Assembly (NCBI GenBank): GCA_964472505.1
Contig: CAYYQW010000002.1
Location: 43,750 to 107,749 of the forward strand
Source of the DNA: an uncultured Bacteroidaceae bacterium
GTDB lineage: Bacteria; Bacteroidota; Bacteroidia; Bacteroidales; JAADGE01
Reading direction: 5' to 3'
Length of the DNA stretch: 64,000 bases
Every line of letters begins with the position of its first letter. The first letter of the stretch is position 1. A model generated the notes under the pieces. It was not told where the DNA came from. It was given only the letters and a program-made list of their open reading frames with translations, and did not search any database. Made by a program: the position numbers and the translations under genes. Of the stretch, positions 39,511-50,728 are shown in pieces.

Positions 39511-39583
39511 GACTCGCTAGCTCAGTCGGTAGAGCAACGGCCTTTTAAGCCGTGGGTCCTGCGTTCGAATCGCAGGCGGGTCA
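39511..39583 (+). tRNA. tRNA-Lys (anticodon UUU)
   Basis: A cloverleaf can be read directly. The acceptor stem GACTCGC/GCGGGTC includes one G-U pair. The D-loop is AGCTCAGTCGGTAGAGC, the anticodon loop is CTTTTAA and the T-arm is GGTTCGAATC-like (GCGTTCGAATCGC). The gene is 73 nt with no encoded CCA. Confidence 0.9.
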
Positions 39584-41251: not shown

Positions 41252-41326
41252 CCTGTTTTTTTTGTTTCCGGTTGGCTAAAGATATAAAATTTTTCTTAGA
41301 GTCCATTTTCAAAAATCCACGTTCAT

Positions 41327-41545
41327 AAAAATTTGCCAAATTTGTACCCGTAAAAAGCCTGAAAATCAATAATTTCCCGGCTACCAAGCAAGCCCAAATT
41401 CGGCAGTTTTAAAAGAAACACTTCAAAACGTCCGGAGGACTTTTGAACGTGTGGGCAGAAAGGCGGGCGGTAGGTTTTTATCGACCATGACGTTTTGAAG
41501 TCCTCCGGACGTTCAAAAGTCATTGACCCACGAAACACAAGCACC
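41327..41545 (+). repeat. Palindromic repeat locus 1 (modules A0-C0-B0)
   Basis: A0 (41327-41410) is a diverged copy of the A module. C0 is a bulged hairpin at 41418-41452 and B0 is a bulged hairpin at 41487-41523. The tail CACGAAACACAAG is shared with locus 2. Confidence 0.85.
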
Positions 41546-41679
41546 AACACACATAACAAAAAAATATCACATTTATATTTGCATTTTTGATTTCTTTTTA
41601 TTTGCTTTACAAGCGAAAACAAAACCAAACTGTATTTTGAATGAATCTTAGAAACCAAAAACCGAAAAGCACCGCTTTT

Positions 41680-41716
<37 letters not shown>

Positions 41717-41874
41717 AATAGCTTTTTCCGATATACCACGACAAAATATATTTTCATTTTATGCAAGAATAAGTTTATTCGGAAGGTGCTGTTAAAATTT
41801 TCTTTGCGGAATATTTAACAGCTATAAACGTTTTTTATAATTCGAAAAAATTTATTAATCATAAAAAATTGCAC

Positions 41875-43167
41875 ATGAAATTACATCACTTTAAATCTAT
41901 AACCCTATTTATTGCAGCTGTATTTTTTTTCTTTCAAAGTTGTGAAAAAGAGAACTATCAAGCTGCCGAAAGTACAAATGAGATAAAAAAAGAAACAATT
42001 ACCAAGAGCAACCCGCACAGCGTTTCGGAAAATGAAGCAGAGCAGTTTGCTTTAAATTTTTATAATACACATTTTAGTAACAAGAAAAACCAAAAAATTA
42101 AGAACCTAAAAAAAGTGAAAGTTCCCATACCCGGGAAAAAGCTTTATGCGGCCGAGATGGAACCCAAAGGCTATGTTATTATGTCGGATGACAAAAGAAA
42201 CGTACCGGTTTTTTCGTTTTCGGAAAACGGATCGTTTGATTATAAAAGTTTAGACGATTTGCCCCCGGGAGTAAAAGAATGGGCTACTGAATTTTTGCTG
42301 ATGAATCTGCACTTGCAGAGCAACCATGATAAATCGCAAAAAGAAAACCGACAAACCCAATTGTGGAACACCTACCTCGACAACAATACCGAAGAAAAAA
42401 TAATTACTCCGGAAGAATGCGATCATTATTTTGTTGAGCACGTGCAAACCATATATGATGACTGCATTATGGAAACCGCTTGGGGACAAGGGCCTCCATA
42501 TAATCTACTAACTCCGATATGCGATGATGACGGAGACCACACTCCCGCCGGCTGTGTAGCCGTAGCCATGGCGCAGGTAATGAAGTATTGGCAACATCCC
42601 GATGACTTTTCTTGGGACATCTTGAAAAACTATTATTCATCCAATGAAACAAACCGAAGCGCCTACGAGGCAGCCGGACTAATGAAAAACATCGGCGATA
42701 ATGTTTCAATGAATTACGGATGTGACGGTTCCGGTGCTTCTCTAAATAAAGCAAAAAAAGCTTTGGATAATGACTACGGCTACAATGACAATATTGTGTA
42801 TGATGATTATCATATTGATGATATCAAAAATAATATACAATTCGGGTATCCGGTAATTTTGGGCGGCTTTAGAACAGTTCAAGAATGGCTCGGGATAAAA
42901 ATATATCTGAACGGGCACGCTTGGGTAGCCGATGGTTATTGGTTGGAATACGACCGCTACAAAGAAGTATGTTATACAGGAGGTGGTGTTCCGCTTGAAC
43001 GTTATTATTCAAAAAATTATCAATACTACATTCACATGAATTGGGGTTGGAGTAATAGAAGCGGAGAAAACACTTGGTATTACAGCAATGAACTTACTGC
43101 ACCCGATAACGGCTCCGGAAATGATTACCAATGGAATAAAAGCATGATTATAAATATTCACCTTTAA
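41875..43167 (+). CDS. C10 family (streptopain/SpeB-like) cysteine peptidase lipoprotein
   Basis: The protein has a lipobox (FFQSC) and an N-terminal propeptide-like region. The catalytic Cys context is PAGCVAVAMAQVMKYW and the catalytic His context is NGHAWVADGY. The HMNWGW motif is also present. All three contexts match SpeB-type signatures. Confidence 0.85.
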   Translation: MKLHHFKSITLFIAAVFFFFQSCEKENYQAAESTNEIKKETITKSNPHSVSENEAEQFALNFYNTHFSNKKNQKIKNLKKVKVPIPGKKLYAAEMEPKGYVIMSDDKRNVPVFSFSENGSFDYKSLDDLPPGVKEWATEFLLMNLHLQSNHDKSQKENRQTQLWNTYLDNNTEEKIITPEECDHYFVEHVQTIYDDCIMETAWGQGPPYNLLTPICDDDGDHTPAGCVAVAMAQVMKYWQHPDDFSWDILKNYYSSNETNRSAYEAAGLMKNIGDNVSMNYGCDGSGASLNKAKKALDNDYGYNDNIVYDDYHIDDIKNNIQFGYPVILGGFRTVQEWLGIKIYLNGHAWVADGYWLEYDRYKEVCYTGGGVPLERYYSKNYQYYIHMNWGWSNRSGENTWYYSNELTAPDNGSGNDYQWNKSMIINIHL

Positions 43168-43177
43168 AACAGACACC

Positions 43178-43633
43178 ATGAAAAACATACTTTTAATTTT
43201 AAGCACTTTAGCATTAATAATGCTGTTTGAAAATTGCGACAAAAACGGAGAATTTATATGCACCGCAGACCATTTTGTTTTTTTAGACGAAAATGGTGAA
43301 GATATTTTTAATACAGAGAGTAATTGTTACATTGATACGTCGGATATTAAGGTTTTTACTCCGGAGAATGAAGAATATCCCATTATATTTGGATTTAGCG
43401 ACAGTTTGAAAATGTACAGCATAGATATAGGGATAAATGGCAAAATCGGACAGGAAGATACTACATTTATTCAGTTCGGAGATTTTAATGTGGATACCAT
43501 TCGTGCCGTTTACACAGAAGAAGGACATTTACAGATTGATGAAATGTATTACAACGACTCATTAATTGAATCATTTTGCAATACACCAAAAGCTCATAAA
43601 ATCACCGTAAAACCGGATTCTGTTTACAACTAA
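43178..43633 (+). CDS. Small lipoprotein, candidate cognate protease inhibitor (staphostatin/Bfi-like by position only)
   Basis: The protein is 151 aa with a lipobox (LFENC). It starts 10 nt after the peptidase stop. The function is inferred only from the known protease-inhibitor gene pairing. Confidence 0.55.
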   Translation: MKNILLILSTLALIMLFENCDKNGEFICTADHFVFLDENGEDIFNTESNCYIDTSDIKVFTPENEEYPIIFGFSDSLKMYSIDIGINGKIGQEDTTFIQFGDFNVDTIRAVYTEEGHLQIDEMYYNDSLIESFCNTPKAHKITVKPDSVYN

Positions 43634-43663
43634 AGCCGGTTTACGCATGAGGGAGGCTGAATC

Positions 43664-44342
43664 AAAAAATCTGCCGGATTTCTACCCATAAAAAGCCGAT
43701 AAGTCAATAAGCTTCCAACTACCAAGCAAACCCAAATCCGGCAGATTTATTTGTTTAGCTAAATCTGTCCGACCGCTTTGAGCGGTCAGACGGATTGAAA
43801 CCCTGACGTTTTGAAGTCCTACGGACGTTCAAAAGTCATAGCCGCGGCACGATTTTCAACCAACCGCAAGTAAAACCTCACGAAACACAAGTCCGCCAAT
43901 ACCCGAAACACTTCAAAACGTCCGACAGGACTTTTGAACGTGTGGGCGAAAGAACAGGCCGTAAATTTTCACAGACCATGACGTTTTGAAGTCCTGCCGG
44001 ACGTTCAAAAGTCATAGCCGCGGCACGATTTTCAACCAAACGCAAGTAAAACCTCACGAAACACAACTTCGATAATACCCGAAACACTTCAAAACGTCCG
44101 ACAGGACTTTTGAACGTGTGGGCGGAAGAGTAGCTGAATAAATAAACCCATGACCTTTTGAAATTGATAAAAATCTGCCGGATTTTTACCCATAAAAAGC
44201 CGATAAGTCAATAAGCTTCCAGCTACCAAGCAAACCCAAATCCGGCAGATTTATTTGTTCAGCTAAATCTGTCCGACCGCTTTGAGCAGTCAGACGGATT
44301 GAAATCCTGACGTTTTGAAGTCCTCCGGACGTTCAAAAGTCA
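43664..44342 (+). repeat. Palindromic repeat locus 2 (modules A1-B1-C1-B2-C2-truncated B-A2-B3)
   Basis: The direct repeats 43664-43838 and 44168-44342 are 175 nt long, 504 nt apart, with 6 mismatches. The B hairpins are at 43805-43838, 43980-44013 and about 44307-44342. The C hairpins are at 43908-43943 and 44084-44119. The B-to-B period is 175 nt and the C-to-C period is 176 nt. Confidence 0.9.
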
Positions 44343-44476
44343 GGAATGAATCAAGCAAATATTTATTATTTTTGTCTTCTTTATACAAAAAACCGTTTTA
44401 ACATCGCATTTAAAACGGATAATTTACGTTATCCAAACATACATATTCATTTTTTAAATTAAAATTGGGGACAAAA

Positions 44477-46390: not shown

Positions 46391-46469
46391 GATTATAATA
46401 TTTAAAAAGTGATATATTTTAAGCTTGTATTAGCCCGGTTCGTATGTGAGAAGTTCCTCTAAAAAAAGA

Positions 46470-46569
46470 GGGGCAAGCTACTCACATCGCACCGCTACAA
46501 CCGCCGTACCCTTGCTTCCGTCAAGACCTGGGGGAGTTAGGCAGGAGCTGGTCGTATGAGACTTACCCC
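46470..46569 (-). ncRNA. ffs: Small (4.5S-type) SRP RNA
   Basis: The minus strand reads GGGGTAAGTCTCATACGACCAGCTCCTGCCTAACTCCCCCAGGTCTTGACGGAAGCAAGGGTACGGCGG...GTAGCTTGCCCC. The conserved domain IV core is CCAGGTC..GAC-GGAA-GCAAGGGTA with a GGAA tetraloop. The 5' GGGG..AAG pairs with the 3' CTT..CCCC, and a T-run follows. The ends are approximate. Confidence 0.7.
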
Positions 46570-46575
46570 GGATTG

Positions 46576-49996: not shown

Positions 49997-50728
49997 CTAA
50001 TTATCTATGTTCTCTTTTTCCTTTTTTTGTCGAGCTTCTGTCTTTTTCAACTCATCATCCAATTCATTCAATTCTTTACTTTTGCGTTGATATTCCTGCT
50101 CGTTAATTTCATTCTTTCTGCGTTTTTCTTCAAGCTTACTGCGCGCTTGTTCCACTTTTTGGCGTGCCGAGCTTAATTTTTCTTCTGATTTTTTCATCTT
50201 TTCCTTGGCTTTTCGGCGAGCTTCTTCTGCTCTTTTCTTCCCGTAGTCGCTCTTATCTAATTCGTCATTATCTTTTCCGTCGGTTTTGCCTTTGTCTTTT
50301 TTGTCAGTTTTATCTTTTTTATCGGCTTTGTCTTTTTTATGCTCTTCGTCTTTCTTTTGTTTTTCCTTATCTTGTTTTTCTTTATCTTGTTTGTCTCGTT
50401 TCTCTTTGTCTTGCTTGTCTCGCTTTTCTTTATCTTCTTTATCCCTCTTCTCTTTGTCTTTTTTATCTTGTTTTTCTTTATCTTCTTTATCTTGCTTCTC
50501 TTTTTCGTCTTTATCCGGTTTTAATTTATCATTATCCGGTTTGGGCTTAAGGTCATCCTTTTGCTTGTCTTTGTCGGTAGCATCATTATGCTTTCCTTTT
50601 TTTTCTTTATCATTGGTCTTTCCTTCTTTTTGTTCGGTTTTACCTTTATCGTTAGTTTTTTGGGCATACACCGTATCGGCAAATCCAATAAAAGCAAGAA
50701 CCAATAAAATGCTTATAAGTTTTTTCAT
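49997..50728 (-). CDS. Secreted K/D/E-rich low-complexity repeat protein
   Basis: The protein has a signal peptide (MKKLISILLVLAFIGFADTVYAQ). Tandem octapeptide units follow (DKEKQDKE, DKEKQDKK, DKEKRDKE, DKEKRDKQ x2 ...), encoded at about 50350-50525. The C-terminus is a charged coiled coil. Confidence 0.6.
   Translation of the reverse strand: MKKLISILLVLAFIGFADTVYAQKTNDKGKTEQKEGKTNDKEKKGKHNDATDKDKQKDDLKPKPDNDKLKPDKDEKEKQDKEDKEKQDKKDKEKRDKEDKEKRDKQDKEKRDKQDKEKQDKEKQKKDEEHKKDKADKKDKTDKKDKGKTDGKDNDELDKSDYGKKRAEEARRKAKEKMKKSEEKLSSARQKVEQARSKLEEKRRKNEINEQEYQRKSKELNELDDELKKTEARQKKEKENIDN

Follow-up and report, generated by a model that had tools for sequence, protein, structure and literature searches.

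The intergenic regions of a 64,000-nt (64 kb) stretch of contig CAYYQW010000002.1, assembled from an uncultured Bacteroidaceae bacterium (referred to here as the window, with its first letter as position 1), contain seven short bulged hairpins of two types, B and C. They are split over two loci, namely locus 2 (43634–44465) and locus 1, which lies 2.3 kb to its left. Their presence raises the question of what kind of element they are and which enzyme could recognize them. It is considered very likely that the B and C hairpins are repetitive extragenic palindromes (REPs) in a mosaic cluster resembling the bacterial interspersed mosaic elements (BIMEs), and that they belong to a family which in related genomes flanks a Y1/HUH gene resembling those of the REP-associated tyrosine transposases (RAYTs), an arrangement termed REPtron. 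They constitute a previously uncatalogued REP family of the Bacteroidales and wider Bacteroidota; the kind of element (REP/BIME) is already known and is not a new system.

Structure of the two hairpin types

The hairpins are 35–38 nt in length (Table 1), and their arm motifs were found eight and seven times in the window, against 0.57 and 0.49 occurrences expected by chance. All seven copies possess an outer stem of 4–5 bp, a bulged G, a 7-bp helix, a second bulged G on the opposite arm, a GTCC/GGAC pairing and a loop of 3–4 nt. The first-pass annotation of this DNA had described stems of 4, 7 and 3–5 bp with single-nucleotide bulges on opposite arms and a loop of 3–4 nt, a description that holds in every copy except that the apical stem is always 4 bp. 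A comparison of the folds with shuffled controls, which had also been proposed, was conducted. The RNA folds of the window copies gave free energies of −14.2 to −16.0 kcal/mol (z-scores of −3.4 to −5.3), with at most 1 of 200 shuffles being as stable, and the DNA folds gave −9.2 and −9.6 kcal/mol (z-scores of −3.8 and −3.6). In length and in these significant RNA and DNA folds the hairpins correspond to REPs, which are short (approximately 20–40 nt) imperfect palindromes forming hairpins when single-stranded.

On the plus strand B reads ACG TTTTGAA GTCC, loop, GGACG TTCAAAA GT, and the reverse complement of C reads ACG TTCAAAA GTCC, loop, GGACG TTTTGAA GT. C thus carries the frame of B on the opposite strand with the inner heptamers exchanged, as had been noticed before. 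In our own reading of these sequences, the stem core would be pseudo-two-fold symmetric (GACG-N7-GTC / GACG-N7'-GTC, the same on both arms), and B and C would be one and the same bulged duplex, closed by the loop at opposite ends. Such a relation would explain the heptamer "flip", as well as the perfect 13-nt complementarity between the 5' arms of the two types and, likewise, between their 3' arms (inverted repeats I23 and I24). The loops had been said to track each other as well. This proved exact for locus 1, where GGA and TCC are complements, and only approximate for locus 2, where the reverse complement of GACA is TGTC, one base from TGCC, and the other two B loops are TAC and TCC.

The exchange of heptamers removes the nested complementarity that would join an inverted pair into one long palindrome. 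In the minimum-energy DNA fold of locus 2 two separate hairpins are kept, and in that of locus 1, where the loops are exact complements, a long inter-hairpin structure wins. Among adjacent inverted pairs in other genomes, 35 of 47 have swapped heptamers as in the window, and it is plausible that the avoidance of unstable long palindromes accounts for this prevalence.

Pairing and conservation in other genomes

To define the family more widely, a reference set holding one genome per species was scanned with the exact frame, leaving the central triplet of each heptamer and the loop free. The matches listed comprise at least 97 loci from 33 assemblies, these being metagenome-assembled genomes (MAGs). 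The labels of the 33 assemblies listed are nearly all Bacteroidales or Bacteroidota and include Lentimicrobiaceae, Rikenellaceae, Salinivirgaceae, Tenuifilaceae, Paludibacter and one "Chlorobiota" MAG. Among the copies listed, the free triplets were perfect Watson–Crick complements in 124 of 137, where approximately two would be expected by chance, and nine versions of them were present (TTG/CAA, TCC/GGA, CAA/TTG, TTA/TAA, ACT/AGT, TCA/TGA, TCT/AGA, GGA/TCC and GCC/GGC). Copies of one genome share ancestry, and a count of distinct paired versions is safer to rely on than the copy counts.

Analysis of 112 distinct copies showed 93.7% of cells to be paired, with a covariation score of 0.380 against 0.107 for column shuffles (none of 500 reached 0.380), and pairing dropped to approximately 50% when the 3' partner was shifted by one column. 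The outer pair beyond the fixed frame, which had no role in the selection of copies, was GC in 56 of these copies, AU in 43, CG in 10 and unpaired or other in 3. RNAalifold independently recovered the same two-bulge consensus structure. With the bulge positions left free, as a check on their invariance that had been suggested earlier, the first bulge was G in 185 of 185 copies and the canonical frame with both bulges as G was found in 167 of 185. The pairing of the hairpin is under selection and the family is widespread. The earlier proposal that the structure is conserved and not a coding frame is upheld by the covariation across the 33 genomes, the RNAalifold structure, the near-invariant bulges and the extragenic position of the copies.

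Two further features bear on the form in which the element is read. On the strand with the bulged Gs, T is the first loop base in 190 of 217 copies (88%) and C the last in 164 (76%), so the element has a defined strand. G-U wobbles make up about 1% of the covarying pairs and are no commoner than plain mismatches, which argues for a DNA palindrome over a structure formed in RNA only.

Genomic distribution

Only 18 of 207 copies were located inside stop-free frames of at least 150 aa, though such frames make up 80% of the sampled DNA. In the sampled loci alone, individual MAGs contain 49, 41 and 18 hairpin copies, and these counts, together with the seven window copies at two intergenic loci, show the multi-copy and extragenic distribution of REPs. 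In many genomes two subtypes are present at approximately 1:1 (TTTTGAA with TTCAAAA, TTTTGAA with TTCAAAT, or TTTCCAA with TTTCCAT). Neighbouring copies are often inverted with gaps of 6–21 nt, and direct tandem arrays were also detected, with fixed periods of approximately 139, 167, 176 and 191 nt in several genomes. In the window, Tandem Repeats Finder placed the B-to-C unit at 43800–44129 (period 176, 1.9 copies, 94% matches), in agreement with the 175/176-nt tandem repeat of B1-C1 and B2-C2 reported previously. The order B, linker, C, linker, B, linker, C, in which two subtypes alternate in orientation with conserved linkers, is that of a BIME. A scan of 2.9 million viral contigs gave one match, so the element is not phage-borne.

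A RAYT-like gene beside the hairpins

The association of the hairpins with a gene was approached from two directions. In the first, all-against-all clustering of open reading frames (ORFs) in the 97 hairpin-selected loci listed gave one small ORF family that is present in 6 of the at least 97 loci, from six assemblies, at a median distance of 16 nt from the hairpins. In one of these loci (L015) the RAYT-like gene has B(+) C(−) B(+) triplets to its left and right, of the same TTTTGAA/TTCAAAA subtypes as in the window. In the reverse direction, 80 metagenome loci were picked by protein similarity only, and ten of them have hairpins in this frame. The closest hairpin lies no more than approximately 160 nt from the gene, and in six of the ten there are hairpins on both sides of it. 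The heptamers in these ten loci are quite different ones (CTGCCAG, CCGGCGG, CTGTCAG, CTTCCAG) and the identity of the bulged base varies in step on both arms (G/G, A/A, T/T, T/G). Many other protein-selected loci are flanked by different palindromes, for example ACCTGACAGGT...ACCTGTCAGGT. The presence of other heptamers and palindromes at other loci fits with each enzyme lineage having its own repeat.

It should also be noted that the L015 gene (6838–7493, minus strand) is frameshifted just before the HUH motif, representing a pseudogene or an assembly error, and that a truncated hairpin, in which the 5' arm of C is joined to the linker, directly follows its stop codon. In locus L131 (approximately 190–1760) the RAYT-like gene lies inside a direct array of eight hairpins of the same orientation (ACACCGGCGGGTCCTACGGACACCGCCGGGT), mostly 139 nt apart, with four on each side.

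The RAYT-like protein is approximately 220 aa in length, with invariant NHFH (HUH) and YIHxNP (Y motif) sequences and a C-terminal YPWSSY tail. More than 1,200 homologues were found, which some sources name RayT. Its sole match in NCBIfam was REP_Tyr_transpos (REP-associated tyrosine transposase), obtained for all 26 of 26 aligned homologues with a best E value of 3e-17, and the sole sequence match in the PDB was 4ER8, the TnpA-REP of Escherichia coli bound to a REP hairpin. An AlphaFold model (pLDDT 88.5, pTM 0.86) also gave 4ER8 as its top Foldseek match (E value of 3.6e-7, TM-score of 0.66 on the target), followed by the IS200, ISDra2 and IS608 transposases. Two hallmarks of a REPtron are seen in related genomes: hairpins flanking a RAYT gene (6 of at least 97 and 10 of 80 loci), and a Y1/HUH fold with HUH and catalytic tyrosine motifs, as indicated by the motifs, the NCBIfam match and the predicted fold. 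The first-pass annotation had named Y1 transposases first among the possible readers of bulged palindromes and had left room for a candidate recombinase elsewhere; the gene adjoining the hairpins in related genomes, with its predicted fold closest to TnpA-REP, provides one.

Assignment to REPs and proposed mechanism

A number of observations weigh against the assignment of the hairpins to a REP/RAYT system. There is no GTAG at either foot of the hairpin, the unpaired 5' GT[AG]G being the mark of the GTAG superfamily, and a search of the flanks for a conserved tetranucleotide guide found none, the 5' flank being only T-rich and G-poor. The tryptophan of the WQ motif, which is tied to GTAG recognition, is replaced by F in the RAYT-like protein, and the scores of this protein lie under the curated cut-offs (52–57 bits against 80 in NCBIfam; 22.3 against 23 for Pfam Y1_Tnp). 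Only 10 of the 80 protein-selected loci have this exact frame, and the shared ancestry of copies within a genome means that the copy counts overstate the independent compensatory events. A tblastn search of the RAYT-like protein against the window gave nothing; the window copies are non-autonomous, with no RAYT gene within the 64 kb. No presence/absence polymorphism was seen, the public contigs of the same organism being identical to the window.

The E. coli TnpA-REP requires a bulged imperfect palindrome in a single-stranded REP (PMC8266576). On the model of this enzyme and of the TnpA of IS200/IS605 (PMC8266576, PMC6006769), we infer that catalysis is performed by the RAYT-like enzyme. When DNA becomes transiently single-stranded, the strand with the ACG...GTCC-loop-GGACG...GT frame would fold into the double-bulged hairpin, with B giving a recognisable hairpin on the plus strand and C on the minus strand. 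By analogy, the enzyme would bind the folded DNA through its shape and its invariant bases, namely the bulged Gs, the AC/GT steps and the GTCC/GGAC cap, and would cut and rejoin nearby, by which copies could spread and rearrange over time. The 7-bp helix would act mainly as a spacer, its sequence being free to change while it remains paired. Placing the loop on the other end of the duplex would keep the substrate of the protein and prevent neighbouring inverted copies from pairing as a single long, perfect palindrome. Transcribed copies may also act as stable RNA hairpins, as a by-product.

A broader proposal, which we advance tentatively and regard as somewhat doubtful, is that these hairpins form a distinct phylum-wide REP class. 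Its pseudo-symmetric double-bulged module (GACG-N7-GTC/GACG-N7'-GTC) might be read by a RAYT lineage from which the GTAG/WQ guide has been lost, and B and C might be circular permutations of one duplex, with the loop at either end giving a substrate on each strand without long palindromes. The family offers a natural test case for RAYT recognition by shape (two bulges at a fixed spacing) rather than by a GTAG guide.

Alternative explanations

An explanation of the hairpins as mainly RNA elements, selected for their RNA structure and serving the flanking transcripts as processing sites, terminators or 3'-end stabilisers, with the link to a transposase being incidental, is unlikely. Their RNA folds are stable, the locus 2 cluster starts 30 nt past a stop codon with the flanking genes both on the plus strand, and for other bacteria both the transcription of REPs and a function as RNA elements have been reported (PMC3733652). 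However, no U-tract follows the hairpins, both orientations occur within one cluster and also between the divergent genes of locus 1, and the rarity of G-U wobbles, at the level of mismatches, also speaks against an RNA element. Rfam, searched at gathering and permissive thresholds, contained no relevant family, giving just chance-level miRNA/snoRNA matches (E value of 0.016 or weaker), and the two-way association with the Y1/HUH gene would be left unexplained. Any role of the hairpins in transcripts would be secondary. Intrinsic terminators, considered separately, were rejected for want of a T-run.

It is quite improbable that the hairpins represent subterminal ends, either of IS200/IS605-type elements or of their miniature derivatives (palindrome-associated or miniature inverted-repeat transposable elements; PATEs or MITEs), the 176-nt units then being whole non-autonomous transposons and not REPs served by a domesticated single-copy RAYT. 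B and C are the same bulged duplex and not distinct left and right ends, and the protein has the hallmarks of class 2 (RAYT), namely YIHxNP in place of Y...Q, the C-terminal YPWSSY extension and best matches to TnpA-REP models. No tnpB partner was noticed beside the gene in the loci inspected closely, no systematic scan for tnpB having been made. Such an origin would agree with the membership of one enzyme superfamily, in which the IS200, IS608 and ISDra2 transposases are the next-best fold matches, and with the fixed-period tandem units described above for several genomes.

Recognition by another protein, either as integron attC-like sites or as double-stranded operator pairs (GAC-N8-GTC) for a dimeric regulator, is very improbable: attC sites are indeed bulged imperfect palindromes read as single strands, and each arm here has palindromic GAC...GTC ends, but the 34–190 nt spacing leaves no room for cassettes, the two bulges fall on different arms, unlike the extrahelical bases of attC, which are found on a single strand, RYYYAAC/GTTRRRY core sites are absent, no integrase-like family recurs among the neighbouring ORFs of the sampled loci, and intrastrand complementarity is kept across at least nine central triplets and wholly different heptamers, which a sequence-reading double-strand binder would not allow. 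The integron integrase put forward in the first-pass annotation as an alternative reader is abandoned on these grounds. A CRISPR-like array was also rejected, the "spacers" being themselves repeated, as were the inverted repeats of Bacteroides invertible promoters, whose consensus (ARACGTWCGT) is unlike the hairpins.

Organization of the repeat clusters and neighbouring genes

Locus 2 is an 830-bp intergenic gap between a 151-aa ORF, itself 3' of a Peptidase_C10 gene, and a 400-aa ORF downstream. It is a repeat mosaic in the order A1, B1, 69-nt linker, C1, 34-nt linker, B2, the first linker repeated, C2, A2 and B3 (Table 1). Locus 1 consists of a diverged A module, C, a 34-nt linker and B, and its C-B doublet is 88% identical to 43905–44015.

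Table 1. Repeat features of the two hairpin loci in the window
Feature	Coordinates	Strand	Remarks
Diverged copy of module A (~80%)	41322..41411	+	Directly left of locus 1 doublet; blastn self-matches 41322-41411 vs 44164-44253 and 41327-41411 vs 43665-43749
C-type REP-like hairpin, locus 1	41418..41452	- (bulged-G frame on minus)	Plus-strand loop GGA
B-type REP-like hairpin, locus 1	41487..41523	+	Loop TCC; inverted doublet with C copy 34 nt upstream
Module A1	43656..43759	.	Inverted repeat I5: 26-nt arms around 52-nt loop; fold
Second hairpin of module A, unrelated to B/C	43762..43796	.	Inverted repeat I21: 16-nt arms, 3-nt loop; fold
B1 REP-like hairpin	43804..43838	+	Loop TAC
C1 REP-like hairpin	43908..43943	- (frame on minus)	Minus-strand loop TGTC
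B2 REP-like hairpin	43978..44015	+	Loop TGCC
C2 REP-like hairpin	44084..44119	-	Folded like other copies
176-nt tandem unit (B, 69-nt linker, C, 34-nt linker), BIME-like core	43800..44129	.	Tandem Repeats Finder; direct repeat D2
Module A2, copy of A1 and second hairpin	44131..44300	.	D1 97%, I18, D3
B3 REP-like hairpin	44307..44343	+	Loop TCC

Module A is present in three copies in the window (43656–43796, 44131–44300 and 41322–41411). Its second hairpin consists of AATCTGTCCGACCGCT TTG AGCGGTCAGACGGATT, and the left arm of A2 is interrupted by an insert which holds a remnant of the B 5' arm (ATGACCTTTTGAA). Module A and the linkers had no match in any fetched locus and are therefore genome-specific; module A may be a genome-specific MITE-like module.

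The repeat clusters at 41322–41523 and 43656–44343 bracket a two-gene block (41869–43633) made up of the Peptidase_C10 gene, which has an Inhibitor_I69 propeptide domain, and the 151-aa ORF, which is without a family match. Pfam gave nothing for the 151-aa and 400-aa neighbouring ORFs, nor for a small ORF within the repeats (43878–44087, minus strand). In the intergenic DNA 5' of the Peptidase_C10 gene, a little to the right of the locus 1 doublet, lies a perfect (AG)17 microsatellite (41682–41715). Public gene calls include a 144-aa minus-strand ORF (approximately 41323–41757) spanning the A-like module, the hairpins and the (AG)17 tract, a call which is probably spurious; such clusters attract spurious gene calls.

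Two public contigs of the same organism, from independent assemblies, end within the repeat block: a JGI contig (L099) at window position 44363 and a Logan contig (L100) at 43891. These independent contig ends suggest that further near-identical copies exist elsewhere in the genome. The clusters are of practical concern, in that they break metagenome assemblies.

Other features of the window include a Bacteroidales small signal recognition particle RNA at 46467–46575 (minus strand, 91.6 bits), the match by which the window is assigned to the Bacteroidales, a tRNA at 39511–39583 (plus strand), and long imperfect tandem repeats at 50271–50530 with periods of 9, 15, 18, 24 and 48. The plus strand of these repeats is T-rich, and their minus strand probably codes for a repetitive protein. 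With regard to the neighbours of the hairpins in other genomes, 24 of 98 sources (the 97 hairpin-selected loci and the window) hold ORFs of one large cluster. Its members (in loci L011, L012, L044, L049, L052, L055, L069, L074, L078 and others) are mostly big secreted proteins whose tails (...GIYFIKI...KIIIQ) are typical of type IX secretion sorting domains, and they often lie a few hundred nucleotides from the hairpins.

Comparison with known REP/RAYT systems

To our knowledge, REP-RAYT systems have been studied almost entirely in Proteobacteria, and those of the Bacteroidetes have been described just as "atypical" and found by hand. The family reported here supplies a strongly covarying and easily searchable REP model for the Bacteroidales and pairs it with an enzyme family that numbers more than 1,200 homologues.

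The REP/BIME elements of E. coli and their TnpA-REP (4ER8) are the closest parallel. In both cases the repeats are short bulged imperfect palindromes, extragenic and multi-copy; two subtypes alternate in orientation with conserved linkers (Y/Z in E. coli, B/C here); and hairpins flank a Y1/HUH gene, with the predicted fold here best matching 4ER8. Unlike the E. coli REP, the hairpins here lack a 5' GTAG tag and have two symmetric single-G bulges in place of one central bulge. The protein differs from E. coli TnpA-REP in its length of approximately 220 aa, in a variable insert after the HUH strand and in having F for the conserved W, and the clusters flanking it can also be in direct order, not solely inverted as in the E. 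coli REPtron.

Inverted REP doublets are common here, as in the REPIN-RAYT systems of Pseudomonas and Enterobacteria (Bertels and Rainey; RAYT groups 2 and 3), and the association with a RAYT gene is likewise shared. In contrast to REPINs, 35 of 47 doublets have swapped heptamers, so that their central helix cannot take part in a long nested hairpin of the REPIN kind, and long direct tandem arrays are common too.

The subterminal hairpins of IS200/IS605 elements (IS608, ISDra2) are also imperfect and are read there as single strands by a Y1/HUH enzyme whose fold is shared with the protein here. They differ in marking the two ends of an autonomous insertion sequence and in using tetranucleotide guide/target pairs, whereas the hairpins here are dispersed and clustered alone.

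The CGTC-tagged REPs have an unpaired terminal CGTC, an uninterrupted stem of 8–9 bp, a loop of 4–5 nt and a CCA tail, and no transposase is linked to them (Di Nocera et al., 2013; PMC3733652). Like the present family they are reported in Bacteroidetes and Chlorobi, form mostly head-to-head dimers and are without GTAG (PMC3733652). The complementary strand of the present hairpins also contains CGTC. The present hairpins fall outside that superfamily, as their CGTC lies on the complementary strand inside a double-bulged stem of 15–16 bp, the loop is 3–4 nt, the CCA tail is missing, and the family is associated with a RAYT-like gene.

Within the same phylum, RAYT subclass 2.6 (Bertels group 5) of the Bacteroidetes was described with "atypical secondary structures" and REPs without GT[AG]G (Quentin et al., 2018; PMC6006769). 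This subclass, taken together with subclasses 2.4 and 2.1, resembles the present system in a Y motif of the YIH[QN]NP type followed by a serine motif, and in REPs without GT[AG]G (PMC6006769). Table S1 of that study, which lists REPs manually, contains neither AAGTCC nor GGACGTT, and the subclass 2.6 REPs given in its part 6 form simple stems rich in GC, unlike the hairpins here (PMC6006769). The motifs of the RAYT-like protein are mixed between the published subclasses, the HUH motif NHFH and the LF[EQ] at the W position resembling subclass 2.1 and YIH[NQ]NP resembling subclass 2.6. No REPs have been reported for subclass 2.1 (PMC6006769), and if the protein does fall within this large subclass (group 1), the hairpins described here would be the first cognate repeats for that group.

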